Positions 7,721 through 24,109 of a DNA stretch of 27,804 nt are shown piece after piece (within the stretch, counting starts at the first letter, position 1; each line of letters starts with the position of its first letter). Origin of the DNA: a virus (lineage: Duplodnaviria > Caudoviricetes); the IMG/VR virus record IMGVR_UViG_3300022666_000006, positions 1 to 27,804 of that record, one strand, 5' to 3'. Below the pieces are notes generated by a model. It was not told where the DNA came from, ran no database searches, and saw only the letters and a list, made by a program, of their open reading frames with translations. The position numbers and the translations under genes are program-made.

Positions 7721-10700
7721 TGGCGTCTGTTGACGATTACCTTGGAGTTATAGATAGCGACTCAAGCGACCGGCGCACCAGGCTGAAGTCCTCGCTTTAC
7801 TCGGCCGCCGATTCCTCGCCTGACGCCGAGTCCGCGCTGGTGAAGATCTCCCGGCGTTCCGGCATCCCGGTCGAGGCACTCAGACTGGACAACGGCCAGG
7901 AGGCAAAACGCCGGATTGCCGCCGAGGACGCCGACCACCTTATCGACAATGCTCCAGCAACCGCCGACCTCCTCTCCGACCCGGAGACGGCAAAGGCGTT
8001 GTGGGATGATGCTCAGGCATTGGTGGGCGTTGAGGATGTGTTCAAGGTGAAGCCGGTCAACCCTATGAGCATCGCATCACCAAACGACCGCAGCGCCGCA
8101 AAACGTGCTCCGGGCGTCATGCGGGCGCTGTGGGAAGGTGCGAAGGCGTCCCCCGAGCTGGTCAATCAGTCGCTGGCGAGGACCGGCCAGGCTGTTGCCG
8201 AGTTCGTTGATTGGTCATTGCAGGTATTCCCCGACGATACCGGAGTGCGGAAGCGTGTATCCGAGATTGCCAAGGACAGCGCCGACTATTGGAAGCGGGC
8301 GGCAAAGGCGAAGATGGGAACCTACGCCCCCGGTAGCGCCGAATCTTACGCGCAGCAGGCCGGGTCCAGTATCGGCACGTCGGCACTCGCGGCACCCTTC
8401 GGCATGGGCGGGGAGAATGCGGCCCTCGCCATGTTCGGGCTGTTTGCAGATGGCGGCTACCAGGAGATGCGGGATGCCGGATACAACCCCTTGGCGGCTG
8501 GCGCGGTGGACGTATCGAACCGCATCATGGAAGGCTTGACCGAGAAGATCGGCCTTGACCGCATCTACAAGGGCGGCGATGACGTGCTCAAGACTGCCAT
8601 CAAGTTCACGCTTGGGGATCTCGGCGGCGAAGAGATCAACACCATCTACAACGCCATATCGGACAAGGTGAACTTGAAGCCTGACATGACCTGGGGAGAC
8701 CTGGCGCAGCAGGTGCTCGACACGGCCATCGTGACCGGCATAGCCGGGCCTTTGCAAGGTGCCAGCATGTCCGGGGCGGCCAGGGTGTCCGAATCCCTCT
8801 ATTCAGCATACGAGCGCCGGAACGCCATCAAGCAGCAAACCGACTTCCTCACTGCCTTGGGCGATTCCGTCAAGTCAACCAAGAGTTTTGAGCGACTCCC
8901 CGAGAAGGTGCAGGAGTTGGTAAAACGCCTCAAGGAGCAGGCAGGCGGCAGCGTGGATAACGTCTACATCCCTGCGGATCGCTGGTCGATGCTCTGGCAG
9001 GACGCCAACCTGGACCCCGGCGACGTGGCCGAGGAAATCCTGGGCGACCGGCAGCAGTACCAGGAGGCTGTGGCCGCGAATAGCGACATCGTTATCCCGC
9101 TGGAGAACTTCATCAAGCTGGCCGGGACGGACAATTACAACGAGATCCTGAACGACGTGCGGCTGAATCCCGGCGAGATGACGCCACGGGAACATGCCGA
9201 GTGGACGCAGAACATGGACGCCGAGGTGGAGCGCATCCTGGCCGAAGCGCAGGGCGAGGAAGCGGCGGCGGCTCCCGATAGACAGGTCTATGATGACGTG
9301 CTGGGCCAACTCATCGCCATCGGCACCGAAAGGGGTACGGCGGAGAAGCAGGCGGCATTGTGGCAGGCTACCATGCGGACACTGGCGGCCAGGGCCGGCA
9401 CGGACGCCATGACTCTGTTCCGGCAGTACGCACCGACCGTGACCCGGCCATTGCCCGACGTGCTGGCAAAACGTGTCAGCGTGGACATGCAGATCGACCC
9501 GCTGATTGACCGGCTCCGCGCTGGCGACCTAGGGGCGAAGGAAGCCGACATATTCGGGCCGTCGCTTATCGAGTTCATCCGGTCCAAAGGCGGGCTGAAG
9601 GATTCGGGGGGCGAACTCAAGAGCCGGGACGCTGGCAAGGGTATCGTGCGCAAGAACGGCATGGAACTCGACCGGGCGAGGGAAGCGGCTGTTGAGTCTG
9701 GCTACCTGCCGGAAGACGCGACCATCTCCGACTTCCTGGATGCCCTGGACGCGGAGTTACGCGGCAAGCCGAGGTATTCCCCCGGCAACCAGAACAACGC
9801 CCTTCTTGAGGAGCGGGAGACGCTCCAGCAGTTCAAGGACTTTCTCGACCAGAACGGTATTGACCTGGAGGGGATGAGTAACGAGGAAGTGCGGAAGGTG
9901 CTGGGGCAGGGGGCTACGCAGGGTGCGATGTGGCAGTACCCGGCGATATCCCCCGAAGACGCCAAAGTTGCCAAGCAGCAGGTAGTGGCGGCGCTGGCGA
10001 CGGTTGCCCCTGAATCGACTCGCGCCATGCAGCTTGAGATTATGCTGGGGCAGTACAATGCGATAATCGACGGTGGCGCGAGTTATGCGGATTTTCAGCC
10101 GGCTGCGTTATTTCAATCTGCCTGGCACGGCAGCCCCCACACATTCGGCAAATTCTCACTGGACGCCATCGGCACCGGGGAAGGAGCGCAGGCTTACGGT
10201 TACGGGCTCTATTTCGCTGGTAGCAAGGAGGTAGCGGAGTGGTATAAAGAGAAGCTTTCACGTGACGACGGGACTATTGTTCGTCGGCTGCTAGACGCGA
10301 TTAATAACGCGGGCGTTAGTACCAGCACCCTTCCGATGGAGGCCTTTTACCTATTCGCGGCGGAATACGCTTACAACAAGGGCGACATGGCCGCGACTCT
10401 TAAAAACGCGAGTAAGACCATTCGGATGTATGAATCCGACGGCCAGCATGAAGAAGCCAGCGACCTTAGCGCCGTCAAAGACGCCGTTGAGAGCGCTGCC
10501 GCGAACGGCGCGGATTTCCCAACCGTTTCAGCGGGCCGCCTCTACAAAGTGGAGCTGGCCCCCGAGGAAGACGAATACCTGCTCTGGGATAAGCCCCTGA
10601 GTGAGCAGAGCGAGAAGGTGAAGGCGGCCATCTCTGATGATAAGAAGCTTGATGAGTGGTTCAATAGTCAGAAAAGAAGAGACGCTGGAGTGAAATTAAG

Positions 10701-13700
10701 CCAGAGGGCTCCATGGGAAGACACGGACAGCGTAACCGGAAGGGATTTTTACAGAACCCTCTCGGATATGATAGGCCGCGATAATCATGAACGGTCCAAT
10801 GGTGCTATCAGGAACGAACCGGACGACAAAGCTGCCTCCGAATACCTCCACTCCCTCGGCATCCGTGGCATTAAATACCTCGACGGAACGAGTCGCGGCA
10901 AGGGTGAAGGCAATTACAACTACGTCATTTTCAACGACATGGACGTGACTATCACGCAGGTCGAGCAGCGCAATAACGGCACCAAGCGCGGCTTCTTCGA
11001 CCTCTCCAACAACACCATTGGCCTGCTGGAAAACGCCGACCTGTCCACCTTCCTGCATGAATCCGCCCATTTCTTCTGGACCGTCATGCGCGATCTGGCT
11101 ACCCGGCCCGACGCGCCCGAGCAGATTGTTGAAGACTACCAGACCCTCCTTGCATGGTTCGGCACCGACAATCCCCAGCGTGAACATCTGGAGCAATTCG
11201 CCCGAGGCTTCGAGCAATACCTTGGCGAAGGCAAGGCACCGACCCCGGAACTGCAACCCCTGTTCCAGCGGTTCAAGGCGTGGATGATCCAGGTCTACCG
11301 CTCCCTTAAAAACCTGAACGTGGACCTCACCGACGAGGTGCGCGGCGTGTTCGACCGGATGATCGCCACCGACGAGGAGATCAAGGCGGCGCGGGAGGGC
11401 GTGGGCGCAAAACCCATCTTCGCCACAGCCGAAGAAGCCGGCATGACTGAGGCCGAGTTCGCGGCATACCAGTCAGACGCTGCCAAGGCAGGCCAGAGGG
11501 AAGAAGAGCGCCTGACCTCCGACCTGATGCGCGAGTACCAGCGTGAGCAGGAGAAATGGTGGAAGGAGCGCCGGGCCGAGGTCCTCTCCGAAGTGGAAGC
11601 GGAGGCCAAGCAGAACCCGGTCTACGAGGCGATCAACCTCCTCACCACCGGCAAACTGTTCGACGGCACCGAGCACCCGGCAGGACCGATGAAGCTCGAC
11701 AAGGAGGAACTCACCCGGCGCTACGGCAAGGAGTTCTTGAAGCGACTCCCGCGAGGTTTCCACCACATCTACGCCACCGAGGGCGGCACGTCCGTCGACC
11801 TCGTAGCCGAGGCGTTTGGCTTCGACTCCGGGGATGCCATGCTCCAGCAGATGATCGAAGCGCCGAAGCTGAAAGATTGGGTCGAGGCCGAGACCGACAT
11901 CAGGATGCGGAAGGAGTACGGCGACAAGCTGACCGACGGCACCATTGCCGAAGACGCCATGTCTGCGGTCCACTCCGACGAGCGGGCCAAGGTGCTCCGG
12001 GCTGAACTGGCGGCTATCCGCAAGAAGCAAAGAGAGGTCAAGCCCTACGTTGACGCGGCCAAGGACCAGGGCAAAGAAGAGCAGGCCCGGTTACAGAAGG
12101 AGCGCGAGTACGAGCGCCGCTGGTTCGAGGCCGAAACCCGGATGAGGATAGCGGTCGAACGCGGGGCCGCACAGGGCGAGATAGACCGGCTCCGCGCCGA
12201 GGTAAAGACCGCCGCCGCCCTGCGCCGGGTCTCCCGCCAGGATATGTATGCCGGCATCCCCCCGGTCGAATCGTTCAAGATGGCTGCCGCGCTCTCCATC
12301 GGCCAGAAGAAGATCTTCGAGATAGACCCGTTCAGCTACGCCAGGGCCGAACAGAAGGCGGCGCGGGAGGCGTTCGACGCCGCGGCAAAGGGTGATTACG
12401 TCAAGGCTGGCGAGGCCAAGCAGCGGCAGATTCTGAACCACTACCTGTACCGGGAAGCGAAGGCGGCAAAGGACGATGCCGAAAAAATCCTTCAGCACGT
12501 CAAAGGGGTCCAATCCAAGCGGGGCCAGGAGCGCATCGCCAAGGCGGGCGGGCCGTTCCTTGACCAGGTGAACGCCCTGCTTGAGCGATACCAATTCCAG
12601 CGCACCTCCAATGCGGAACTGGAGCAGCGCGAGACGCTGCGGGAATGGGCGGCGCGGATGGAGGAGGAGGGGCTGATAATCCCCATCTCCGACGAGATGC
12701 TGGAGGCGGCAACGGTCATCAACTACCGGCAGGCAACCACTGACGAACTGTGGGCGTTTTACGACGCCCTGCGGGTCATCGAGTCGGCGGCCCGGCAATA
12801 CCGGGAGTTCCGCACTCAAAACGACCTGCTGGAGTGGGAAGATGTCAAGGACGATCTGGTCGGGGCAATCTTGAACGCCGACCTGAAATCCACCGGGGAG
12901 CTGGGCAGGCCCAACAACAAAATGAAGCTCCGCAAAGGGCTCAAGGTCAAGGGAGCGGCGGCATGGCGCTGGTTCGACGCCGAGCACCTGAAGATCGAGC
13001 AGATGGTGGAGTGGCTGGACAGTGGCAGGATTGATGGTCCGTGGGCGAAATACTTCTTCGACATGGCCGACCACGCGCAAACGAAAGAGTACGACTATCA
13101 CGCCACGGTCACCAAGGCACTGCAAGATCTGAACGACCTGATGCCGAAAGAATGGCATGGCCGGATGTTGGACGATACCAGGGCAAGACTCCGGGGCATC
13201 GACGGGGCGGTCAACCGCTACACCCTGATATCCATCGCGCTCAACACCGGCAACGAGGGCAACCTGCAGCAACTCCTTGACGGGAACATGTGGAACGAAG
13301 AGGAACTGGACGCGGCTCTGGAGGAACTTTCCGCCGAGGATTGGCAGTATATCCAGGGCGTGTGGGACATCATTGACTCGCTCTGGCCGGAAATCGAGGC
13401 GCTCCAGAAGAGGATGACTGGTCTGCCGCCCAAGAAGGTCGAGGCGCGGGAGATCCAGAACCAGCACGGCACCTTCCGCGGTGGCTACTTCCCGCTGGTC
13501 TACGACCCGAAAACCTCGCAGGTGGGCGAGAAGCAGGCGGCGGCAGGCGAGGATGTGACCGGCTTTCTCAAGATGAACTACGGCAATGCGGCTACCTTCA
13601 AGGGTCACACCAAAGAGAGGATGGAGACGGTTGTTGCCCGCCCACTGCTGGACTTCGAGAAGGTGGTGGCGCGGCACATGGGCAAGGTCATCAAAGACCT

Positions 13701-14919
13701 GTCGCACCGCGAGGCGATATTCAACCTGAACCGGATACTCCGGGCTCCCGAGATAAAAGCCCTCCTCACCGACCGGATGGGGGAGGACTACTACCGGCAG
13801 ATGCGGGCCTGGATGCAGACGCTGATATCCGACCGGGCCGACTCCTTGGCGTCCGAGGTAACACTGCTCCCGAGGTTGGCGCGGGGACTACGGACCAACA
13901 CGGCAATCGTCACGATGGGGTTCAAGATCTCGACCGCCCTATCTCAGTTCGCCGGGTTCGGACCCTCCGTCGACCTGGTGGGCTACCGCAACATGACCAA
14001 GGCGCTGATCCAGGCAATGGCGCATCCTGGCCGGGTGTGGCAGACGATCACCGAGAAGTCTGGCGAGATGCGGCACCGGGCCGGGACCATCGACCGCGAC
14101 ATGAAGGAAGAACTGATGAAGTTGCGCGGGGTGCGGGGCAAGGCGGCTGCCGTCAAGCGGACCGCGTTCATCCTGACCGCAATGGCCGACCGGGTGGTCT
14201 CGGTCCCAACCTGGCTGGCTGGCTACAACAAGGCTATCGGCGAAGGGCTGTCAGAAGGAGATGCTATCCGCATGGGTGACCGGGCGGTTCGCCTCTCTCA
14301 GGGTGGCGGCGGGGCCAAGGACCTGGCGGCGGTCCAGCGGGAAAACGAGTTGATGAAGCTGTTGACGATGTACTACACACCGTTTAGCGCCTTGTATGCC
14401 CGGCTGCGGGATGTGGGGCATACCACTCGTGGGCCGAAGGATCTGCCGCGGGCGGTCGCCCGGACCATCGCACTGGTCATTCTCCCGGCAGTGCTGAGTG
14501 ATTTGTTGGTCGGCAGGGGGCCAGATGATGACGAAGACGATGTTTGGTGGGCGGCGCGGAAGGTGACGCTTTACCCGTTCCAGTCGGTCCCGTTCGTGCG
14601 CGATGTGGCGAACGTGGTCTTCGAGCCCAAACTGGCAAAGCTCGGCGGTGCGTCTGCCAAATTCAAGCCGGGGTATAAGATAACCCCGATGGAGGACTCG
14701 GTCCGCAAAGTCATAAAGGCTATCGAAAATCTCAGTGGCGCATGGGACGGTGACAAGCCGTGGGACGATGTGGCGTGGGATGCTTTCGAGGCCAGTGGGT
14801 ATCTGTTCGGACTCCCGACCGCACAGACACGGATAACCGGCGAATACTTGGAAGATATGTTGACCGAGGGGGATAATCAGGATAATCTGAGCGGAATAGT
14901 GTTTCGCCGCCACAAATAA
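7720..14919 (+). CDS. Large ejection protein (T7 gp16-like position), polyvalent, with PARP-like ART and zincin-like peptidase domains
   Basis: 2399 aa. WHGSPH...GTGEGAQAYGYGLYFA...GIRGIKY...NYVIF at about 10120-10940; RGFF....ADLSTFLHESAHFF with HExxH at 11056-11070; C-terminal GGYFPLVYDP and RLSQGGG..KDL regions as in BPP-1-like large virion proteins. Confidence 0.85.
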   Translation: MASVDDYLGVIDSDSSDRRTRLKSSLYSAADSSPDAESALVKISRRSGIPVEALRLDNGQEAKRRIAAEDADHLIDNAPATADLLSDPETAKALWDDAQALVGVEDVFKVKPVNPMSIASPNDRSAAKRAPGVMRALWEGAKASPELVNQSLARTGQAVAEFVDWSLQVFPDDTGVRKRVSEIAKDSADYWKRAAKAKMGTYAPGSAESYAQQAGSSIGTSALAAPFGMGGENAALAMFGLFADGGYQEMRDAGYNPLAAGAVDVSNRIMEGLTEKIGLDRIYKGGDDVLKTAIKFTLGDLGGEEINTIYNAISDKVNLKPDMTWGDLAQQVLDTAIVTGIAGPLQGASMSGAARVSESLYSAYERRNAIKQQTDFLTALGDSVKSTKSFERLPEKVQELVKRLKEQAGGSVDNVYIPADRWSMLWQDANLDPGDVAEEILGDRQQYQEAVAANSDIVIPLENFIKLAGTDNYNEILNDVRLNPGEMTPREHAEWTQNMDAEVERILAEAQGEEAAAAPDRQVYDDVLGQLIAIGTERGTAEKQAALWQATMRTLAARAGTDAMTLFRQYAPTVTRPLPDVLAKRVSVDMQIDPLIDRLRAGDLGAKEADIFGPSLIEFIRSKGGLKDSGGELKSRDAGKGIVRKNGMELDRAREAAVESGYLPEDATISDFLDALDAELRGKPRYSPGNQNNALLEERETLQQFKDFLDQNGIDLEGMSNEEVRKVLGQGATQGAMWQYPAISPEDAKVAKQQVVAALATVAPESTRAMQLEIMLGQYNAIIDGGASYADFQPAALFQSAWHGSPHTFGKFSLDAIGTGEGAQAYGYGLYFAGSKEVAEWYKEKLSRDDGTIVRRLLDAINNAGVSTSTLPMEAFYLFAAEYAYNKGDMAATLKNASKTIRMYESDGQHEEASDLSAVKDAVESAAANGADFPTVSAGRLYKVELAPEEDEYLLWDKPLSEQSEKVKAAISDDKKLDEWFNSQKRRDAGVKLSQRAPWEDTDSVTGRDFYRTLSDMIGRDNHERSNGAIRNEPDDKAASEYLHSLGIRGIKYLDGTSRGKGEGNYNYVIFNDMDVTITQVEQRNNGTKRGFFDLSNNTIGLLENADLSTFLHESAHFFWTVMRDLATRPDAPEQIVEDYQTLLAWFGTDNPQREHLEQFARGFEQYLGEGKAPTPELQPLFQRFKAWMIQVYRSLKNLNVDLTDEVRGVFDRMIATDEEIKAAREGVGAKPIFATAEEAGMTEAEFAAYQSDAAKAGQREEERLTSDLMREYQREQEKWWKERRAEVLSEVEAEAKQNPVYEAINLLTTGKLFDGTEHPAGPMKLDKEELTRRYGKEFLKRLPRGFHHIYATEGGTSVDLVAEAFGFDSGDAMLQQMIEAPKLKDWVEAETDIRMRKEYGDKLTDGTIAEDAMSAVHSDERAKVLRAELAAIRKKQREVKPYVDAAKDQGKEEQARLQKEREYERRWFEAETRMRIAVERGAAQGEIDRLRAEVKTAAALRRVSRQDMYAGIPPVESFKMAAALSIGQKKIFEIDPFSYARAEQKAAREAFDAAAKGDYVKAGEAKQRQILNHYLYREAKAAKDDAEKILQHVKGVQSKRGQERIAKAGGPFLDQVNALLERYQFQRTSNAELEQRETLREWAARMEEEGLIIPISDEMLEAATVINYRQATTDELWAFYDALRVIESAARQYREFRTQNDLLEWEDVKDDLVGAILNADLKSTGELGRPNNKMKLRKGLKVKGAAAWRWFDAEHLKIEQMVEWLDSGRIDGPWAKYFFDMADHAQTKEYDYHATVTKALQDLNDLMPKEWHGRMLDDTRARLRGIDGAVNRYTLISIALNTGNEGNLQQLLDGNMWNEEELDAALEELSAEDWQYIQGVWDIIDSLWPEIEALQKRMTGLPPKKVEAREIQNQHGTFRGGYFPLVYDPKTSQVGEKQAAAGEDVTGFLKMNYGNAATFKGHTKERMETVVARPLLDFEKVVARHMGKVIKDLSHREAIFNLNRILRAPEIKALLTDRMGEDYYRQMRAWMQTLISDRADSLASEVTLLPRLARGLRTNTAIVTMGFKISTALSQFAGFGPSVDLVGYRNMTKALIQAMAHPGRVWQTITEKSGEMRHRAGTIDRDMKEELMKLRGVRGKAAAVKRTAFILTAMADRVVSVPTWLAGYNKAIGEGLSEGDAIRMGDRAVRLSQGGGGAKDLAAVQRENELMKLLTMYYTPFSALYARLRDVGHTTRGPKDLPRAVARTIALVILPAVLSDLLVGRGPDDDEDDVWWAARKVTLYPFQSVPFVRDVANVVFEPKLAKLGGASAKFKPGYKITPMEDSVRKVIKAIENLSGAWDGDKPWDDVAWDAFEASGYLFGLPTAQTRITGEYLEDMLTEGDNQDNLSGIVFRRHK

Positions 14920-14930
14920 GGAGGCACCAA

Positions 14931-16595
14931 TTGACACTGGCTACAACCACGAACAAAGCGACGTTCCAAGGGTCTGGCACCACCGGACCATTTTCCTTTA
15001 CCTTCCCGTTTTTTGCAGATGCAGATATTAAAGTTTACAAAGTTGTGTCGGGCGTAGCCTCGCTCTTGACCATCACGACCGACTACACAATCACCGGGGC
15101 CGGGAGCGGTTCTGGTGGAGCGGTTACCACTGTGTCGGCGCTGGCGTCCGGGGAGTCCCTCATTGTCCTGCGGGACATGACCATCAATCAGTCGACCGAC
15201 CTCGCCAACCAGGGCGCATTTTACGCCGAGACTATCGAGGATGCGCTGGACCGGCTGACGATGTTCTCCCAGCAACTCAAGGAACAATCCGACCGGGCCA
15301 TCAAGCTGCCGATTGCTGACCCGACCGATACCACCGCGCTGGCTACCAACCTGCAACTGCTGGCCGGAATAGCCGCCGACATCGCTACTGTGGCGGCTGC
15401 CGTGGCCGACGTGAGCACTGTTGCCGGGATGTCGACCGATGTTGCTACTGTGGCGGACAACTTGGCCGACGTAACCAATTTTTCCGATGTCTACCAGGGG
15501 CCGTATGCTACCGACCCGGCAACCAGGAACGACGCCAGCGCCCTACATCCCGGCGACCTGTACTTCAACACGACTACCGACGTGATGATGATCTACACCG
15601 GCAACGGATGGATCGCCCCGGCGTCGCCCGATGCTGTGGGTGTCAATTTTGATACGGCAAGCGGGGACGGGTCGACAACCTCCTTTACCCTTGAAGGTCT
15701 GGTGCTGGCGTCTCTTGACGCTATCGAGGTTTTTGTGGGGGGGGTGTTCCAGCGACCCACCATTGATTACACCGCACGGGCAAGTTACGTGCCAGCGCTC
15801 CAAACCTATTCCGCGGTTATTACCTTTACTTCCGCCCCGGCAGTCGGGACCGATAACATTTCGTTCCGCTGGTACTCTTCGATAGCGGTCGGCACCCCAA
15901 ACAACAACAGCGTTTCTACCATCAAGATCCAGAATGGCGCGGTCACCAAGGAAAAGCTGGCATCTGACGCCATAGACGAGACCAACGTCAATCTCTCCGA
16001 CGTAACCACCGGGAACGTGTCCGCCGCGGCGCACGGCTTCTGCCCCAAGTTCCCCGACAATACGACTACATTCCTGCGGGGCGACGGTTCCTACGCCTCA
16101 CCCGATGGTGGGGATGCTGGCACTGTTGACGGACTACATGCCGCCGATATCTGCAATTACGCCGAATCGTGGGTAACTACGCAGGTCTCCAGCGCAAAGT
16201 CGATCCCGTGGGACGATACCATCCCCCAGTCCGGGGAAGGGGCGCAACTCACCACCGTCAGCATTACCCCCAAGTCCGCGACCAACCGCCTCATTATTGA
16301 CGTGTCGGTCTACTGTGACGCGTTTGCAACCTTCCTTCCCGTGGTGGCACTGTTCAAGGATTCCGAGGCCGGTGCGCGGGCGGTCGGGTGCAAATACTCC
16401 CCGTCCGGCGATTACCTCACCTGCGTCAGCTTCAGGTACTCAATGGTGGCGGGTGGAACCTCGGCCATTACGTTCAAGCTCCGCTTCGGCGGGGCAGGGG
16501 GCGGCACGGTCTATGTTAACGGCACCGGTGGAGATGGGCGGCGCTTCGGCGGGGTGATGCGGTCCGGCCTAACCGTAACCGAAATCACTGAATAA
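14931..16595 (+). CDS. Tail fibre protein (T7 gp17-type N-terminal adaptor)
   Basis: 554 aa; TTG start after AAGGAGG. N-terminal G.G.T..F.FTFPF...DI.V...DYTITG..., then Q.TDL.NQG.FY.E.IEDALDRLTM..QQL, a coiled-coil, and a C-terminal beta domain (IPWDDTIPQ..EG..ITPKS). Confidence 0.88.
   Translation: MTLATTTNKATFQGSGTTGPFSFTFPFFADADIKVYKVVSGVASLLTITTDYTITGAGSGSGGAVTTVSALASGESLIVLRDMTINQSTDLANQGAFYAETIEDALDRLTMFSQQLKEQSDRAIKLPIADPTDTTALATNLQLLAGIAADIATVAAAVADVSTVAGMSTDVATVADNLADVTNFSDVYQGPYATDPATRNDASALHPGDLYFNTTTDVMMIYTGNGWIAPASPDAVGVNFDTASGDGSTTSFTLEGLVLASLDAIEVFVGGVFQRPTIDYTARASYVPALQTYSAVITFTSAPAVGTDNISFRWYSSIAVGTPNNNSVSTIKIQNGAVTKEKLASDAIDETNVNLSDVTTGNVSAAAHGFCPKFPDNTTTFLRGDGSYASPDGGDAGTVDGLHAADICNYAESWVTTQVSSAKSIPWDDTIPQSGEGAQLTTVSITPKSATNRLIIDVSVYCDAFATFLPVVALFKDSEAGARAVGCKYSPSGDYLTCVSFRYSMVAGGTSAITFKLRFGGAGGGTVYVNGTGGDGRRFGGVMRSGLTVTEITE
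15378..15473 (+). repeat. 30-bp / 10-aa tandem repeat in the tail fibre shaft
   Basis: GACATCGCTACTGTGGCGGCTGCCGTGGCC / GACGTGAGCACTGTTGCCGGGATGTCGACC / GATGTTGCTACTGTGGCGGACAACTTGGCC / GACGTA, encoding DIATVAAAVA-DVSTVAGMST-DVATVADNLA-DV. Confidence 0.75.
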
Positions 16596-16605
16596 GGAGA
16601 CCGAT

Positions 16606-16884
16606 TTGAGCCAGCGACCCGACAATTCGCAATGCCAGGAACACTCAGGGATGTTTACCAGGATGAACATTGGGATTGGCCTACTGTCAATCTTGGTCGG
16701 GCTGTTTGGCTACAGTTCATTCGTTCAGATCCCGCGACTGGAGTCCTACATGAAGGATCAGTATTCCGGGCTTGATAAAAGAATGATGATGGCGGAACGG
16801 GACATCTCGCAAGGGAAGATCGAAGACGAACGCATCAAAGCACAACGCAATGCCGACCATCCGGCAAAGGACAAGTTCCAATGA
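16606..16884 (+). CDS. Single-TM membrane protein, putative holin/antiholin-like
   Basis: TTG start after AAGGAG; C.EHSG motif, one hydrophobic segment (IGIGLLSILVGLFGYSSF) and a charged coiled tail; first gene of the lysis region. Confidence 0.55.
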   Translation: MSQRPDNSQCQEHSGMFTRMNIGIGLLSILVGLFGYSSFVQIPRLESYMKDQYSGLDKRMMMAERDISQGKIEDERIKAQRNADHPAKDKFQ

Positions 16885-17072
16885 TTTGCCCTCACTCCTC
16901 CCGGTGCGAATGGTTGCGTCGGTTCGGGGTGAGGACGTGCCACCGGATGTTCTGGGCCGACCGGTGCAAGCCGGTAGATGGGGTTGACGATGAGGCAGCA
17001 GAAGATACAGGAGGACCGGGGAGCATTGAGAGTCCCCGAGAAGAAACCGCCGAAACACTGCGCGAGGTGTGA
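16881..17072 (+). CDS. Small Cys-rich hypothetical protein
   Basis: 63 aa; ATGA overlap with the upstream gene; four Cys in the N-terminal half. Confidence 0.4.
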   Translation: MICPHSSRCEWLRRFGVRTCHRMFWADRCKPVDGVDDEAAEDTGGPGSIESPREETAETLREV

Positions 17073-17136
17073 CCACTGGATGGACAACACGGCGACCGAA
17101 TGTGGAATATGCGGCGGGCCGCTGCGGAAAGGATAG
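16990..17136 (+). CDS. 48-aa zinc-ribbon microprotein (not in ORF track)
   Basis: Hand translation gives MRQQKIQEDRGALRVPEKKPPKHCARCDHWMDNTATECGICGGPLRKG*, with a CxxC-x10-CxxCG pattern. The true start could be TTG further inside. Confidence 0.55.
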   Translation: MRQQKIQEDRGALRVPEKKPPKHCARCDHWMDNTATECGICGGPLRKG

Positions 17137-17138
17137 AG

Positions 17139-17264
17139 ATGCCCTGTGACGGAATGCGCTGCCCCATCAACGGGCAGGCTTGCGACAAGCGCACTAACAA
17201 CGAGGAGCCGATAGATGGCCCCTGGCCGGATATGAAGCCGAGCGCGAGAGACCATGCAGATTGA
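17139..17264 (+). CDS. 41-aa Cys-containing microprotein (not in ORF track)
   Basis: Hand translation gives MPCDGMRCPINGQACDKRTNNEEPIDGPWPDMKPSARDHAD*. AAAGGA lies upstream; the ORF fills the gap and overlaps the endolysin start. Confidence 0.4.
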   Translation: MPCDGMRCPINGQACDKRTNNEEPIDGPWPDMKPSARDHAD

Positions 17265-17817
17265 TAGGAAGAAATTCTTCGACGGATACCGCGCCGCCTT
17301 CGGCAAGCTGGAGCAGGGCCAGGTGGATGGGTTGGAGTTCCTGCTGGGCAAGCTGGAGGTCGACCCCGACATTCTCTGGCTGTCGTGGGCGGCGTATATG
17401 CTGGCGACGGTCAAACATGAGACCGGCGATACCTTCCGACCGATCAAAGAGTTCGGTCGAGGCAAGGGCAAGAAGTACGGCATCCCCACCAGAAGCGGAA
17501 AGATTTATTACGGGCGCGGCTACGTCCAGCTTACCTGGGAACGGAACTACCTGATCATGGGGCCGTATGTCGGTGAGGATCTGGCAAGTCATCCCGACCG
17601 GGCGCTGGACCCTGACGTTGCCTACAACATCATGAGCGTAGGGATGAGGAAGGGGATGTTCACGGGGCGGAAACTCTCGGACTACCTCAACGCCGAGTCC
17701 CGCGACTACCAGAACGCTCGTCGCATCATCAATTCGGTGGACTGTGCCGAGAAAATTGCCCGGTACGCGGTCCGGTTCGAGGAGATACTGGAATCGGCCA
17801 TAATCGGGGAAGGGTAA
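17254..17817 (+). CDS. Endolysin, glycoside hydrolase family 19 (chitinase-like)
   Basis: AYMLATVKHETG.TF.PI.E, YYGRGYVQLTW..NY and ARRIIN motifs. Confidence 0.92.
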   Translation: MQIDRKKFFDGYRAAFGKLEQGQVDGLEFLLGKLEVDPDILWLSWAAYMLATVKHETGDTFRPIKEFGRGKGKKYGIPTRSGKIYYGRGYVQLTWERNYLIMGPYVGEDLASHPDRALDPDVAYNIMSVGMRKGMFTGRKLSDYLNAESRDYQNARRIINSVDCAEKIARYAVRFEEILESAIIGEG

Positions 17818-17913
17818 GGTAAGGGTCGGGCCAGGAAAAGCCCTCAGAATTGAAATATGGGCGTTGCGCCCGTAGACCCGCATAAACAAAGGCTTTACGA
17901 AAGGAGCGGTCAG

Positions 17914-18195
17914 ATGATAGGCAAATTTCTAAAGGGCAGGCTCAGGGAGGCTTCCACGTATCGCGGACTCCTGGTCATTGTCGGCATGTTCGGGATATCA
18001 TTTTCCCCGGAACAGTCCGAGGCTATCATTGGGGGCTGCCTCGCGGTCTACGGTATCCTCGCCGCCTTCCTCCCCGACAAGTTCGGAGAGAAGAAGGATG
18101 CGCCGATTCCGATCCCCGAGGCAAAAGAGATTGAGCGCCGCATCGAGTCCGGCCCGACTCCCTGGAACGGCAAGACACCCGGACAGTTTCCGTGA
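17914..18195 (+). CDS. Holin (two TM segments)
   Basis: ATG at 17914 after AAAGGAG. RL.E.STYRGL motif, with TM segments GLLVIVGMFGISF and AIIGGCLAVYGILAAFL. Confidence 0.7.
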   Translation: MIGKFLKGRLREASTYRGLLVIVGMFGISFSPEQSEAIIGGCLAVYGILAAFLPDKFGEKKDAPIPIPEAKEIERRIESGPTPWNGKTPGQFP

Positions 18196-18285
18196 GGTTC
18201 TCCGTCGGCAAATCGTTCCGGTGTGACCCGGAGTATTTCTTTCTGCGGCTATGGAAGCGCCTGTTCGGGCGCAAGGAGGATGTAT

Positions 18286-18561
18286 ATGTGGACATGGATC
18301 AAAGCGGCATGGGGTGCGGCGGCGGATCTTCTTCTGCCGACGCTGAAACTGTTTCTCTCGGACATCGGGCCTGCTCTCGGAAAAGCGGCTGTCAGTGCGG
18401 TCGGCATCGTGGCGCAGGATCTGGCGGGCAAGACGGGCGGTGAGAAGCGCGATGCTGCTTACCGGCTCATTCTTGACGAACTGAAGGACCAGGGCATAAC
18501 GGCTGCGGAATCGGCCATCAACGCCGCGATAGAGGTCGCGGTCTTAAAACTCAAACAGTAA
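18286..18561 (+). CDS. LL-H-holin-like lysis-cassette protein
   Basis: ATG at 18286 after AAGGAGG. G.EKRD.A...I.AAIE.AV..LK signature and an amphipathic N-terminus. Confidence 0.55.
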   Translation: MWTWIKAAWGAAADLLLPTLKLFLSDIGPALGKAAVSAVGIVAQDLAGKTGGEKRDAAYRLILDELKDQGITAAESAINAAIEVAVLKLKQ

Positions 18562-18573
18562 GGGGGTGTTGTC

Positions 18574-18984
18574 ATGGCTGATGCCGTTACCGTAACCAAA
18601 TTAGCAGAGGACCGCCAGACGGTCACCTACCATCTAACCAACATCTCGGACGGGACCGGCGAATCCGCCGTACAGAAGGTCGACAAGTCCGGCCTGGCCG
18701 GGTTCGACGGGGCTACCGAACCGCTCAAGCTGAAGATATGGGAGATCCGCTGGGCAATCTCCGGGTTCACCGCGGTCAAACTCTTGGCGGACCACACCAC
18801 GGACGATGTGCTGATGGTGCTGGCCGGGAACGGCTACGAGGATTTCGGGGTCTACGGCGGCAAGGCGGATCCTGCGTCTGCCGGCGGGACCGGGGATATT
18901 CTGCTGACCACCGCCGGGGCGTCCGCCGATGCTACCTACGACATCACCGTGACATTTTGGAAGGAAGGTCGGGTGGCCGCATGA
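18574..18984 (+). CDS. Conserved phage structural protein (beta-sandwich; possible head decoration or spike base)
   Basis: MADAVT....LTNISDGTGESAV.KVD.S.L...DF...GG....G.TGDI.LTT...TY.I pattern, recalled from environmental phage virion proteins; GGGGG RBS. Confidence 0.6.
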   Translation: MADAVTVTKLAEDRQTVTYHLTNISDGTGESAVQKVDKSGLAGFDGATEPLKLKIWEIRWAISGFTAVKLLADHTTDDVLMVLAGNGYEDFGVYGGKADPASAGGTGDILLTTAGASADATYDITVTFWKEGRVAA

Positions 18985-21377
18985 TGAGGGGGATGCGTCG
19001 TGCCATGATGCGTGAGAAAGATCAGGCCCGCCAGCGCAAGCGGGCAGTGATGCTGGCGGGCAACAACGGCGGGCGGCAGGACATGTCTACCTTCTTTGCG
19101 CCCCTGACGTCGACCGACAAGGTTCTGTCGCCGGTTCGCGGAGTCGGCCCCGCCACCTTCACCCGCGCCTCTGCCCAATACATCACCGACCATGAGGGCA
19201 ACGCGAGGAAGGTGGGGAGCGGCTCTGTTGCTGTTGAAGGCAGTCGGGTGGTGACGAACTTGCTCACCTACTCAGAAGACCTGAGTAATGCGGCGTGGTC
19301 AATTTCGGTCGTAGGAACTGGTAGTGTAAACATAGGGACTGATAAAAGTGTTACTTTGTCTGCAATAGATAGTGGTGACAGAGCCTACGTTGTACACACG
19401 TTGTCAGGACTTACGGTTAATAGTGGAGAAATCTTACGCGTATCGTGGGAGCAGAATGTGCTTACCGGAACTCCTAACGGTCGCATGTTTTACGTGTATA
19501 ATACGGGTGCAATCACACAAGAGTTTAGAACTTTAATAGGTTCTGGGCGTGTTTCTTCACTTGTAACATTCAACACTACAGCAGTAAATCCTATATTATA
19601 CATAGGTGTGGGTGTTTCATCAGGTGTATCGTCTCCGTATAGTATAAATATCCGTAATATACAAGTTGAAGTTGTCACCGCCCAATCCAATACCAATCCC
19701 GGCGAGTACGTCAAGACAACCTCTGCCGCTGTCAGTAAGTGCTTCAGCACCACCAACGGTAACACGGTCAATGGCACAACTGGTGTCGTCACCGAAGCAA
19801 CCGGGACACCCCTCCCTCAGTCCTACCCTGAACGGGCGAACAGCACAGCCTACTCCCTGAACGACAAGATTCAGGTTTCCGGCTGGTGGTACAACTGCAC
19901 CACGGCTGGAACGTCTGCTGGTTCTGCTCCTACCTTTACGACAGGTAAAGCGGGACTTGTCACGGTCACAGACGGAACGGTGACGTGGACGCTTGGTGGT
20001 CGTCTGCTTCTGGGTTATGTCAGCGAACCTGCCAGCACGAGCAAGGTAACAGCCTATGGTCTTATCCCGGCTGGTAAGCTTGGGAGTGAGTTGAGTGTTA
20101 ATGGAGACTTTGCGTCAGGTGACACAGGATGGGTCCACGGAGATTCTTGGACGCTAGGAAGTGGGGTAGCGGCTGCAAACTCTAGCGTTGACGCTGTGAT
20201 GTATCAGTCAGTTGTAACCTTGGGAAAAATGTATCAGTTGTCCTACCAAGTTACTGCAATCACTAGTGGAGGTTTCACGGCGAGAGTTGGTGGAGTCGTT
20301 GGAACTACTCGCACAACTACAGGCACCTTTACGGAAATACTAGGACCAGCGGCTACCACAGGCGCAGGAATCGCTACAGTTGGTGCAACAGTTGGCAGTG
20401 TCGACAACATATCAATCAAAGAAGTCACATGGGCAGTAGGCACCAAGAGCTACTGGACCGGTTCCGCATTTCAGCAGAACATCACCGGCCTCACCCTCAG
20501 CGGTGACACTGCGGGCCTTGTAAAGGTTGCCGACGGGACCACCCTTGTAACCACTGCCGGTTTGCTCGGCATCAATGCCAATGGCAAAGTCTACGAAGCA
20601 GACAACACGCTCGGACCAACTCCTTCCGTCATTACCTTTGCTGGCACAACCGGGAACACGAACAAGCACAGCGGAGCACTCTACATTGCCAAACTCAGCG
20701 GCGGCGGTACGTCTACCATTGAGATAAACGGCACCACGACCGCCATTACCTCGGCGGCATTGACACGGGTGAAGGTGGAGGACGTAACCACCGCATCAGG
20801 GTCGCAACTCATCCTGAACGTGGGCGCGGGGGATAAGGTTCAATTTCTCCTAATGGGATTGTCCGAGGCATCCTTTGTGTCCTCCATCATGCCCACGGCG
20901 GGGAGTACGGCTACGAGGGCGGCAACGAGTCTGAGCTATCCTGTGTCCAACATCAAGGATGCAGCCGGGACGGTGTATGTTGAATACTTCTCTCCACTGG
21001 CAACGACTGTCGGGGATATGCGTTTGTTGGGTTGTACGGGAAACGGTGGCGAGACGCCCATCCTGACCAACACGACGAAATCCGTCGAACTGTACGACGG
21101 GAGCACGATCCCGACCGGCCCGGCAGTTGCCCCGAGCACGACCGCGGTCAACAGGGTGCTTACCAGGTGGAATGCCACCGCGGGCAAATTGAAGGCTTTT
21201 GCCGGCGGTCAGGCAGGAACCGAGGGGGTCTATGACGGTACGTTCGGCATGACCAGTGTTGATGTCGGTTCGGGCCGGGCGGTTGGTGATGCCCGCTTTA
21301 CCGGGTACATCCGCAACGTCAAGGTCTGGAACTGGGCGCTTTCCGACATACAGTGCATAAAGGAGATCACGAAATGA
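18981..21377 (+). CDS. Head spike / fibre-like adhesin with carbohydrate-binding modules and a C-terminal ConA/LamG-like domain
   Basis: Likely start is ATG 18981 (ATGA overlap), giving 798 aa. TFTRAS...D..G, E..R.TNLLTYSEDLSN.AW, SS..PT.GS.ATRAA, GTVYVE and G.IRNVKVWN.ALSD motifs; Thr/Gly/Ser-rich. Confidence 0.72.
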   Translation: MMRGMRRAMMREKDQARQRKRAVMLAGNNGGRQDMSTFFAPLTSTDKVLSPVRGVGPATFTRASAQYITDHEGNARKVGSGSVAVEGSRVVTNLLTYSEDLSNAAWSISVVGTGSVNIGTDKSVTLSAIDSGDRAYVVHTLSGLTVNSGEILRVSWEQNVLTGTPNGRMFYVYNTGAITQEFRTLIGSGRVSSLVTFNTTAVNPILYIGVGVSSGVSSPYSINIRNIQVEVVTAQSNTNPGEYVKTTSAAVSKCFSTTNGNTVNGTTGVVTEATGTPLPQSYPERANSTAYSLNDKIQVSGWWYNCTTAGTSAGSAPTFTTGKAGLVTVTDGTVTWTLGGRLLLGYVSEPASTSKVTAYGLIPAGKLGSELSVNGDFASGDTGWVHGDSWTLGSGVAAANSSVDAVMYQSVVTLGKMYQLSYQVTAITSGGFTARVGGVVGTTRTTTGTFTEILGPAATTGAGIATVGATVGSVDNISIKEVTWAVGTKSYWTGSAFQQNITGLTLSGDTAGLVKVADGTTLVTTAGLLGINANGKVYEADNTLGPTPSVITFAGTTGNTNKHSGALYIAKLSGGGTSTIEINGTTTAITSAALTRVKVEDVTTASGSQLILNVGAGDKVQFLLMGLSEASFVSSIMPTAGSTATRAATSLSYPVSNIKDAAGTVYVEYFSPLATTVGDMRLLGCTGNGGETPILTNTTKSVELYDGSTIPTGPAVAPSTTAVNRVLTRWNATAGKLKAFAGGQAGTEGVYDGTFGMTSVDVGSGRAVGDARFTGYIRNVKVWNWALSDIQCIKEITK

Positions 21378-21775
21378 TAACACTTGCAATCCAGCTCAAG
21401 ACCGACCTGGCCGATACCGCATTCACGCCGCAGGAGACCGGCTACTGGCTGCCCTGTCTGGTAGCCTCGGCACAATTCCTCCAGCAGCTGAATCTGGCGC
21501 TGGAGCCCCAACTGATCCACGGCCCCATCCCGTGCAACCCGGTAGCCGACCATACCGAGGGCTACCTGGGGAATATCAACACGCCCCCCAATGAGTTCGG
21601 CGTTGTCCAGGTCCGCATCGAGAACTATGCCGCGCTGAAGATCCCATTCCTGCCGCCCGAGGCACCGTTCGTTATCTACCTGGGCGACACCTCGGAGCGG
21701 AAGGAGATCGGCACCGACGAGGCAGGCAACCCGATTTACGAGACCGTGCTGGCCGGTAGCTTTTCCGGCGACTGA
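21374..21775 (+). CDS. Hypothetical protein coupled to the spike gene (possible assembly chaperone or tip protein)
   Basis: ATG 21374 overlaps the spike TGA; AGGAG RBS; 133 aa; last gene before the terminator. Confidence 0.6.
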   Translation: MITLAIQLKTDLADTAFTPQETGYWLPCLVASAQFLQQLNLALEPQLIHGPIPCNPVADHTEGYLGNINTPPNEFGVVQVRIENYAALKIPFLPPEAPFVIYLGDTSERKEIGTDEAGNPIYETVLAGSFSGD

Positions 21776-21817
21776 TTCCCTCCCCAAACCTCCGCAGCAA
21801 CCTCCCACCTCTCCCTT

Positions 21818-21844
21818 GCCCGTCAGCGATGACGGGCTTTTTTT
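21818..21844 (+). terminator. Intrinsic terminator ending the late operon
   Basis: GCCCGTCA-GCGA-TGACGGGC followed by TTTTTTT; overlaps the 3' end of the convergent integrase ORF. Confidence 0.9.
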
Positions 21845-22620
21845 ATTGGCACCACGTTGTCCTTGCCGAGCCTCCCGGCGTGGCGCAGGATGTAGGCAGC
21901 GACGATCTCCACAGTACGGCGCAGGTCTGCCATGTGGAACTGGATATAGCCCGCCGTCACGTCCTGCGGGAGTGCGTGGTTGACCAGGCGCTTAATGGTC
22001 AGTACGGGGACGCGGAGCGTCTCGCAGTAGGTTTGGAATGTGCGGCGCAGGTCGTGTAATATCAGGTCTGCTCCGCCCCGGCTTGCCATCGATTCCAGCG
22101 CATAGCGGCAGTCCACCAGATGCCCTGTCTTGCTCCGAGTCGAGGGGAACACATATCCATCGTCGGACAGCCTGAAAAACTCGGCGTGCTCCTTCAGAAG
22201 CTCCACAAGGTAGGAGCAGATCGGGATGTCGAGCGGTTCGCCTGTCTTGGTATCGACAACGTACATGGTCCCCTGCTCCAGATCCAGGTCGATCCACCGC
22301 AGGGCGAAAATCTCCATCTTCCGTGCGCCGGTAAAAAGCAGCATCTTGAGCGCAACCCTGACGTTTGGCTCCCCGGCATCCTCGGCCAGGTCAAACCATG
22401 CCCTAAGCTCCTCGGGGCGCAGATAGCCCGTCCTGGTCTTGAGCTTGTGCCATGACTTTGTGGCCGAAAGGATAGCGACCGGGTTGATGGGCAGCGCGTC
22501 ATCGTGTACCAGCATCGCCAGGTTGGCCACGACCCGGTTACATGCAGCATCTCCCCGAACTGTCTCCTGTTCAGCCCCCCTGGCCTCGCGCACTGCCTTT
22601 AACTTTTCCTTTAGATCCAT
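21823..22620 (-). CDS. int: N-terminally truncated tyrosine integrase fused to the start of a repressor gene
   Basis: Catalytic R (TGARKME), K (DTKTG), HxxR (HDLRR), H (VNH) and Y (TAGY) are all present, plus a C-terminal NVVPI tail. Only about 60 aa precede the catalytic domain. GAGG RBS 6 nt upstream. Confidence 0.88.
   Translation of the reverse strand: MDLKEKLKAVREARGAEQETVRGDAACNRVVANLAMLVHDDALPINPVAILSATKSWHKLKTRTGYLRPEELRAWFDLAEDAGEPNVRVALKMLLFTGARKMEIFALRWIDLDLEQGTMYVVDTKTGEPLDIPICSYLVELLKEHAEFFRLSDDGYVFPSTRSKTGHLVDCRYALESMASRGGADLILHDLRRTFQTYCETLRVPVLTIKRLVNHALPQDVTAGYIQFHMADLRRTVEIVAAYILRHAGRLGKDNVVPIKKARHR
22527..22620 (-). pseudogene. 5' remnant of an XRE/cI-type HTH repressor
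   Basis: Removing one G from the G6 run (C6 at 22575-22580 on the + strand) gives MDLKEKLKAVREARGLNRRQFGEMLHVTGSW, the XRE pattern (L+..R...G.....A..L.V...). It sits in the cI position, divergent from the Cro/Ner-like gene. Confidence 0.75.
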
Positions 22621-22639
22621 CCCGTACCTCTCATAACAA

Positions 22640-22668: not shown

Positions 22669-22717
22669 TTTTTTCTTGACAGGCTCAACTAAGTGGATTA
22701 TAGTTCAATTCAGTTGA
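22645..22717. promoter_or_regulatory. Three palindromic operators, consensus TCAACT-N-AGTTGA
   Basis: TCAACCCAGTTCA (22645-22657), TCAACTAAGTGGA (22685-22697) and TCAATTCAGTTGA (22705-22717), plus a half-site TCAACT at 22735-22740. Confidence 0.8.
22676..22704 (+). promoter_or_regulatory. Rightward PR-like sigma70 promoter of the early operon
   Basis: TTGACA (22676-22681), a 17-nt spacer, then TATAGT (22699-22704). Confidence 0.88.
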
Positions 22718-22789
22718 GCGACATACCGATTTATTCAACTATGATTCAATATTTGTAACCATATACCACTAGATGGAGATTTGTCAATT

Positions 22790-22984
22790 ATGACGCTAAA
22801 CCTTACTGCCAAAAAAATCAGGTCCAAAGGCTTGACGGTCAAGGCTTGGGCGGCGCAGCACGGCTACCCGTACCAGACCGTGATCAAGGTGCTGCATGGG
22901 TACACGGGAAAAAGAAGCGCCAGCCTCGCGCTGGAGATACTGGACAGACTAAGGACCGACGGGTTCCTGGAGGAGGCGAAATGA
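22790..22984 (+). CDS. Ner/Cro-like small HTH DNA-binding protein
   Basis: IRSKGLTVKAWAAQHGYPYQTVIKVLHG HTH; first gene after PR. Start is ATG 22790 or TTG 22781. Confidence 0.8.
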   Translation: MTLNLTAKKIRSKGLTVKAWAAQHGYPYQTVIKVLHGYTGKRSASLALEILDRLRTDGFLEEAK

Positions 22985-23169
22985 GCAACTGTTACACGAC
23001 GAAAGAACTCAGCGAGATGCTCGGGATTTCTGCCGGGAAACTGGCTACCGAGCGGATGAAGGGTAAAGGGATTCCCTTTGTGAAGATCGGCGGGGCGGTG
23101 AGATACCGCAAGAAAGACGTGGAGTCCTACCTGGAGAACAACCTGCGCCGCACGGTCGCAGACAAATAA
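22981..23169 (+). CDS. xis: Excisionase-like HTH (HTH_17 type) protein
   Basis: ATG 22981 (ATGA overlap); YTTKELSEMLGIS...R..GKGIPFVKIGGAVRYRKKDV. Confidence 0.8.
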   Translation: MSNCYTTKELSEMLGISAGKLATERMKGKGIPFVKIGGAVRYRKKDVESYLENNLRRTVADK

Positions 23170-23188: not shown

Positions 23189-24109
23189 ATGAAGGTAACG
23201 AAGAGCGTAAGGCAGTGCGTGATGGATGTTCTGGAAGGTGCTGAAGGGTCCATGTCGGTGTGCGAGATCTACCGGAAGATGCACCGGGAATTGTTCTCGC
23301 ACGTTCGGAAGGAAAAGGCGACCGCTCTGATCAAGGGTGCCCTCGACGTCCTGAAGGCGCATGGCTCCATCAATGCCAGTACGACAGAGAAGCTCAATCC
23401 CGGCGGCGGCATGGTCGAAGTGCCGGTCTATTACGCAGTGCGCCAGGGCGTGCTTGAGATGGCGAAGCCTTCCCGCAAGCATATCTTCAGCGGCGGCGAA
23501 CTGGAGACCATCATCAAGGGCATGGCCCCGCCCTTCACCTTGGAAGCCGTGGTTGACTCCGTACCCGAAACGCTCGACCGCCGCGACGTGAGCAATGCCG
23601 TGGCCTGCAAGATTCATCGGATGGTCGTTGCTGGCGAATTGCGGGTTGTCGGAAAAACGTACTCCCGCAACGGTCGCACCATGCGGATATACGATTTCCC
23701 CGAAGAACAGACCCCGCAAGCCCCCCCTGCCCCCACCGAAGATCCCAAGGGCGGCACATTCTATTTCAAACATTTCCCCGTTCGCACGCTAGTCAAGGAC
23801 GGCAAAACCCTGTTCAACGCGAGAGACATAGCGTCCATTCTCGGTTTCCTCGACCCGGAGGAGGCGGTGGCGAACTACTGCGAGCGCGTGGACAGCGGCA
23901 TGGTGTCCGCGACCGGGTGCAGCCGGATGATTTTTGTCTCGAAGACCGGTAACAAATACGACCTGGTGGAGTGGCTGATCGACGTGGGCGGCAAGGTGCG
24001 GACTGTCGACCCAGAACCGTCCGTGGAGCTTCAGCAGGCAATCGAAACGATAACAGCGCTGCAAGGCAGGCTTGAGCGGATCGAGCAGACGCTTTGGCCG
24101 GCGGCGTAA
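23189..24109 (+). CDS. Bro-N domain protein with N-terminal tandem winged-helix-like domains (antirepressor-like)
   Basis: C-terminal F....VRTLVKDGKTLFNARDIASILGF.DP..AV..YC is the Bro-N pattern; GGAGAGG RBS. Confidence 0.65.
   Translation: MKVTKSVRQCVMDVLEGAEGSMSVCEIYRKMHRELFSHVRKEKATALIKGALDVLKAHGSINASTTEKLNPGGGMVEVPVYYAVRQGVLEMAKPSRKHIFSGGELETIIKGMAPPFTLEAVVDSVPETLDRRDVSNAVACKIHRMVVAGELRVVGKTYSRNGRTMRIYDFPEEQTPQAPPAPTEDPKGGTFYFKHFPVRTLVKDGKTLFNARDIASILGFLDPEEAVANYCERVDSGMVSATGCSRMIFVSKTGNKYDLVEWLIDVGGKVRTVDPEPSVELQQAIETITALQGRLERIEQTLWPAA

Follow-up and report, generated by a model that had tools for sequence, protein, structure and literature searches.

A probable deletion scar linking a repressor-like start with the 3' half of an integrase gene in a phage

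We propose that a single leftward open reading frame (ORF) of 265 amino acids in a phage record marks a deletion within the lysogeny operon of what was formerly a temperate phage: the first ~30 codons of a likely XRE repressor gene now run into the 3' half of an integrase gene, and the phage would be left with lytic growth only. We put the probability of this reading at roughly 0.8. The ORF (21823..22620, minus strand; defined from the ORF list and Pfam matches) probably represents nothing more than the usual trace of lost dormancy in a temperate phage, and no new enzyme. Throughout, the window is the whole stretch of DNA that was analysed, a 27.8 kb phage record that is about 63% complete.

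Gene neighbourhood and switch signals

On the plus strand of the window, genes for a GP7-type capsid, the tail and the tail fibre lead up to the single leftward ORF, beyond which a rightward early operon carries Cro-like, excisionase-like, antirepressor-like, recombination and VRR-NUC genes. The first of these (22790..22984, plus strand) encodes a Cro/Ner-like helix-turn-helix (HTH) protein that matches phrog_925 and, at 32.7 bits against a cut-off of 34, the BcepMu gp16 family TIGR04111, which we take to be Cro/Ner-like. It is followed on the same strand by genes for an excisionase-like HTH_17 protein (22981..23169, by profile match) and an antirepressor-like protein with Bro-N/Ant similarity over residues ~190-250 (23189..24109). 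Intact switch genes of the lytic side stand here beside broken lysogeny genes, the arrangement of a lytic derivative. A profile search for Peptidase_S24 gave no match in the window. Given the incompleteness of the window, a second repressor could sit outside it, and this counts against the scar reading.

The repressor-like start of the leftward ORF diverges from the Cro-like gene, with promoter-like sites between the two. Its ATG is preceded by a Shine-Dalgarno-like GAGAGG (22627..22632, minus strand, read from the sequence). One promoter-like site faces the repressor/integrase operon (22758..22787, minus strand) and the other, convergent with it, faces the early lytic operon (22676..22704, plus strand); they are consensus matches only, at 10 of 12 and 11 of 12 positions, respectively, and each has a counterpart in a related phage, G002. 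An imperfect inverted repeat found by repeat search (22683..22719, no strand assigned) lies over the rightward promoter-like site and is a candidate operator. At the other end of the ORF, a hairpin resembling an intrinsic terminator (21818..21847, plus strand), which would serve the rightward tail genes, overlaps the last int codons; G002 has a hairpin in the same place, with stem letters changed relative to the window.

Elsewhere in the window, a 2399-aa protein (7720-14919) with an LPD22 domain at its N-terminal start is probably an ejection or polyvalent protein. Possible slippage sites are also seen in a G8 run of the tail-fibre gene (15737-15744) and a C7 run of the antirepressor-like gene (23721-23727).

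A repressor-like start on a truncated integrase

The ORF begins MDLKEKLKAVREARG (22620-21823, minus strand), and an XRE helix-turn-helix is readable in its first ~30 codons only with a +1 shift at a run of six G (22575..22580, minus strand), after which the +1 frame continues LNRRQFGEMLHVTGSW. All of this is as the first-pass annotation had described it. The HTH reading is interrupted by a +1 frameshift whose simplest site is the G6 run; the difference may reflect the gain of a G or another +1 or -2 event nearby. The likely 5' remnant of the XRE repressor gene (22527..22620, minus strand) spans about 30 codons; the ORF frame gives helix 1, and the +1 frame gives helix 2 and the turn.

The read-through peptide, for which a profile search had been suggested as a check, matches Pfam HTH_31 best (E 8.6e-4, 20 bits against a cut-off of 27), as well as HTH_19 and HTH_3 (E 0.03), all under the Pfam cut-offs, and weakly PHROG 147 and 8 (E 0.04-0.05) and NCBIfam RstR (E 0.15). 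The HTH match stops at residue 28-31, with no complete recognition helix and no C-terminal domain. Two control peptides, one with the same start continued without the shift and one consisting of the +1 part only, matched nothing at E up to 10. We also scored the read-through, with an X at the break, against a local XRE profile of 30 sequences from phage loci: it reaches 6.1 bits vs 1.9 bits for the ORF frame, and only 3 of 3000 decoys with random continuations score at least 6.1 bits, a count uncorrected for a few alternative frames. The XRE-like start thus scores above controls and most decoys, but every family score falls under its cut-off, and we regard the HTH reading as probably beyond chance but weak. 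A repressor remnant is nevertheless likely, because the HTH matches exceed those of the controls and the start lies opposite the Cro-like gene. A protein search of low sensitivity found no longer relatives of the read-through peptide.

The rest of the ORF (21823..22536, minus strand) is the 3' part of an Arm-DNA-bind_3-type tyrosine integrase, comprising the last core-binding helix, the linker and the whole catalytic domain. Pfam Phage_integrase (PF00589) matches residues 67-226 (E 3.8e-13, 50 bits), and R100, K125, H189, R192, H215 and Y225 are aligned in 20/20 homologues, so the catalytic residues are all intact, as had been noted at first. The nearest proteins, at 42-46% identity over the retained part, are mostly 400-459 aa long with an arm-binding domain present, and 106 of the 120 collected homologues have at least 380 aa. 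Arm-DNA-bind_3 (PF13356) occurs in all three homologues scanned and is absent from the fusion ORF, and a SAM-like match spans residues 121-208 of homologue P0012. The homologues agree with the earlier description of integrases of about 400 aa with arm- and core-binding domains. The integrase part of the fusion starts at a position equivalent to homologue residue 167-221 (the anchor was found in 17 of 20 aligned rows), which means that the arm domain is gone, together with the core-binding domain except its last helix.

The junction was placed with a motif preceding a conserved Asn, anchored in 97 of the 106 homologues of at least 380 aa. ORF residues 17-28 miss nearly all conserved positions of this motif; R29 and V31 fit whereas V30 and A32 do not, and from N33 onward the sequence fits the family on the whole, except at L34 and L37. 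From this pattern the integrase sequence appears to begin at residue 29-33, and the deletion junction is best given as a zone (22524..22538, minus strand) rather than a single base. The family-motif comparison itself gives 22536-22524, within the initial estimate of about 22515-22535.

A structure model of the ORF has pLDDT below 55 over residues 1-60, becomes confident from about residue 65 and is mostly above 85 from residue 70. Its fold matches XerA, XerH and the integrases of lambda, P2 and HP1 (E 1e-7 to 1e-4), and structures of SroF appear at ranks 44 and 47 among the fold matches. The first-pass annotation had also considered that full-length homologues might share this N-terminus as that of a native short recombinase. 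Among the best 150 HMMER matches none aligns from residue 1 except the ORF itself, no homologue listed in the top 120 or the top 150 shares its N-terminus, and none of the 17 homologues inspected by eye has an XRE-like start. As its N-terminus is unshared within the best 150, the ORF does not correspond to any native short recombinase known so far. No tRNA-like attP core was seen. Three homologues of 652-713 aa (P0176, P0191 and P0207) seem to consist of a full integrase followed by another, partly degenerate copy of the core-binding and catalytic domains.

The junction in metagenomes and the module in related phages

We compared the window with Logan contigs of the biofilm metagenome runs X1, X2 and X3, all of one study. 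The contigs of all three of these full-share runs cross the junction and the G6 run unbroken, with 0 differences and no indel, at depths of 13.5, 230 and 5.5, respectively, level with the flanks. At contig level, the proposed check of junction support comes out in favour of the join, which contigs of three samples carry identically together with the G6 run. No branch, longer allele or second path is present at the junction in the X1-X3 contigs, nor any G5/G6 variation, although contigs drop rare variants and low-level slippage could hide in them.

Outside the ORF, a second contig of 1.6-1.8 kb with a depth of about 7 (X1 and X2) joins the window at 21777-21806 with other upstream DNA, and likeness to G002 begins at about 21776-21777, the same spot as this branch. 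The site may be a module boundary, a sibling phage or attL, a sibling with another tail-end module being the simplest. An integrated copy, of which no second junction was seen, would likewise be compatible with the X1 depths of 13, 7.4 and 13.5; with a dead integrase, such a copy in X1 is explicable only if integration came first, which counts against the scar reading. In the same run, depth rises to 789, vs 13.5 alongside, towards the 3' end of the antirepressor-like gene (23896-24000), a segment common to far more abundant relatives in the sample. Short identical or near-identical pieces of the window (21962-22155, 22906-23055 and 23501-23786) occur in wastewater runs X5 and X6, of two other studies, X6, perhaps an RNA run, having a single identical piece of 150 bases over cro/xis. 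None of the runs listed as sharing the window is labelled as RNA. These pieces indicate that the same or a very close phage exists beyond the biofilm study, while X5, X6, X7 and X12 cover no junction.

The relative G002 is a complete phage of 39,062 bp with terminal repeats. Its capsid and tail proteins are 98% and 95% identical to those of the window, and DNA identity between the two phages is 89-99% in most of the virion blocks, falling to 72-74% in the switch region. The layout is that of the window, with both face-to-face promoter-like sites and the terminator hairpin kept, and yet only 566 nt separate the int stop from the cro start, vs 967 in the window. The int remnant of G002 starts at the equivalent of window residue 127, directly after an in-frame stop and with no in-frame start, and is devoid of the catalytic Arg and Lys (R100 and K125). 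Its breakpoints differ from those of the window on both sides: the remnant begins about 45 nt past the -35 box of the rightward promoter, and a comparison of the spacers puts the join at or near the place expected for the repressor ribosome-binding site, although a point some ten codons into the gene is also possible. Searches of G002 for HTH_3 or Peptidase_S24 gave no match, the HTH_3 search being insensitive to remnants, as it also missed the fragment in the window; no repressor, partition or plasmid replication family was found among the 38 ORFs scanned out of 60 listed.

The int remnants of the window and G002 are 68% identical, with a dN/dS of 0.19 and a dS of 1.5, and neither has an internal stop; the corresponding dN/dS values are 0.31 for cro and 0.18 for xis. 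The low dN/dS and the lack of internal stops indicate that the integrases diverged under purifying selection as working genes and were then cut separately and lately, and the two deletions are likely, on sequence grounds, to be independent and recent. The collapsed module of G002 thereby supports the first of three options offered in the first-pass annotation, that of a temperate phage turned lytic. Adjoining the int remnant of G002 is an IS200/IS605-type TnpB gene (L002 3668-4840; 390 aa, OrfB_IS605, Cas12f1-like TNB). The two phages are unlike over the tail-fibre and lysis block (window 15572-21775), where the window has a GH19 endolysin and G002 a CHAP-type one; this difference between flanks that are 90-95% identical is a module swap.

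No intact temperate parent was found in any collection searched, the pattern searches being able to detect close relatives only, in collections from which near-identical records may be missing. The integrase part found one distant locus among viral contigs, a 30-base start-of-gene pattern had 0 matches, and no relative was confirmed in searches with Cro and the upstream 133-aa protein. An alignment of the two integrase sequences retrieved one irrelevant genome locus, only G002 among viral contigs and nothing from metagenomes; an Ant alignment retrieved G002 only, or none; and annotated phages offered only integrases of about 33% identity. The protein search with Cro recovered no relative, not even the Cro of G002, and its sensitivity is therefore low. 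We therefore infer the deletion, its size and the identity of the repressor.

Among capsid relatives, 23 of 55 loci were searched for PF00589 and two matched, and both were rejected as clues to the parent: G054 has a 417-aa integrase of another type with no adjacent repressor, and G058 has only an integron-integrase-like fragment. This catalytic fragment (L145 1487-2035) adjoins the small terminase gene. Of 81 loci related through the ERF-like gene, 50 were searched with the tail protein and four matched. A contig of sludge run X4, from another study, has 1175 letters between the flanks vs 1276 in the window, with a gappy match to the int end; its module is too short for a 400-aa integrase plus a repressor and may hold an intact short repressor. 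All three related modules (window, G002 and X4) are too short for a repressor and a full integrase.

Proposed origin, rival readings and known systems

Based on the above, we propose that the leftward promoter would once have driven a repressor and then an integrase, in a P2/186-like face-to-face switch. P2-type phages carry int in the same operon as the repressor. A +1 frameshift in the G run would have knocked out the repressor and produced a clear-type mutant, and a deletion of at least ~0.5 kb, taking part of int and the remainder of the repressor gene, would have removed dead DNA and landed by chance in the shifted frame, at odds of one in three. The two events may have come in either order, a deletion followed by the gain of a G being the version for which selection could be argued. 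The needs of lytic growth would have set both limits of the deletion: at one end the rightward promoter, which would have been kept along with cro, xis and ant, and at the other the tail-operon terminator, kept within the last int codons. Since the core-binding domain is mostly missing, we predict that the fusion protein, should it be made at all, could not recombine DNA. Chance at one in three is the likely explanation for the in-frame join, the opposite outcome being seen in G002; two events that leave the frame open and every catalytic residue in place are also what selection would yield, and to that extent count against a scar.

The first-pass annotation had put forward one deletion joining the 5' part of cI to the 3' part of int, probably with loss of attP. 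The join is supported by the domains cut relative to homologues and by the different collapse in G002. In P2-like phages, however, the order is attP-int-switch (PMC3448106); with that order, attP would lie beyond the int end and escape the deletion.

The rival that survives best, though we consider it unlikely, is that the in-frame fusion was selected, the gain of a G having restored a core-less catalytic domain as a resolvase, nickase or DNA-binding regulator. The open frame with its six catalytic residues, the promoter-like site and Shine-Dalgarno sequence in place, the abundance of the allele (230x) and the recombinase-fold repressor SroF among the fold matches would all fit, and FimB and FimE are short, catalytic-domain-only invertases, exceptions to the two-domain build. 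Against this, the G002 remnant is out of frame and without the Arg and Lys, the N-terminus is unshared in the best 120 and best 150 matches, an XRE-like start occurs in 0/17 inspected homologues, and no partition or plasmid replication family appears among the 38 G002 ORFs. Tyrosine recombinases, moreover, generally need and pair a core-binding with a catalytic domain (PMC8138268). A version in which the operon collapses repeatedly in reactor and wastewater biofilms (3/3 modules) and the scar was here rescued as a selected chimeric protein, with G5/G6 as an on-off switch, is similarly doubtful.

Programmed site-specific excision of the immunity cassette, committing the phage to lysis, is highly improbable: it would accommodate the shortness of all three related modules, but the breakpoints of the window and G002 differ on both sides, the junction has no repeat of note, and the X1-X3 contigs offer no longer allele or second path. 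Neither a selected fusion nor site-specific excision would predict the pattern in G002, and both of these options of the first-pass annotation are disfavoured for that reason, the former also by the loss of most of the core-binding domain.

There is likewise very little probability that the HTH is partly coincidence, with some 14 codons or none derived from a repressor and a G run that was always six. Every HTH score is below its cut-off and the insensitive search found no full-length relative of the peptide; yet only 3/3000 decoys reach the score, the ORF frame matches nothing, and the location opposite the Cro-like gene, behind a promoter and Shine-Dalgarno sequence, is where a repressor is expected. 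Least credible is an assembly or sequencing artefact at the junction or G6, since, although X1-X3 belong to one study, which may itself have yielded this record, and were compared at contig level, separately assembled contigs of three samples show 0 differences over the junction, one of them at 230x.

A deletion scar has several counterparts among known phages. The repressor gene is partly or wholly deleted in mycobacteriophage D29 and in Cluster A delta-rep escape mutants (PMC6550527), which resemble the window in combining a temperate build with a repressor deletion and a lytic-only outcome. In the P2-like phage HQ103 (PMC10321612) and the clear mutant L-413C (PMC3448106), the repressor is broken by a small frameshift, as proposed here. 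HQ103 does not integrate, but, unlike the window, it keeps its integrase, and it can still enter a host-controlled carrier state (PMC10321612), so that repressor loss is no proof of strict lysis. Streptococcus thermophilus phage TP-778L is lytically propagated and, like the window, has only a truncated integrase; its origin was a recombination event in which the intact int at one prophage end and the truncated int at the other took part, and a repressor fusion is not reported in the available part of that paper (PMC3952083). The P2/186-type switch has convergent promoters, the repressor first in the lysogenic operon (PMC1904263) and the order attP-int-switch (PMC3448106), and the layout proposed for the window would resemble it in these features. 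The window differs from P2 in its podovirus-like virion genes (GP7 capsid, head-tail connector), its BcepMu gp16-like Cro and its separate xis, and does not belong to a P2-like phage.

A search of the literature for the phrase 'repressor-integrase fusion', covering few subscription journals, found no paper. We regard the ORF as a real new instance of an event that is already well described, the deletion or frameshifting of the repressor in phages of temperate build, and its importance would be much greater only if the fusion protein were active or selected. Lifestyle predictors that count an integrase Pfam match would call the window phage temperate. On our reading, the switch from temperate to lytic life has occurred in nature separately in two relatives whose immunity modules differ, and the two independent losses hint that engineered biofilms favour the loss of lysogeny in this phage group.
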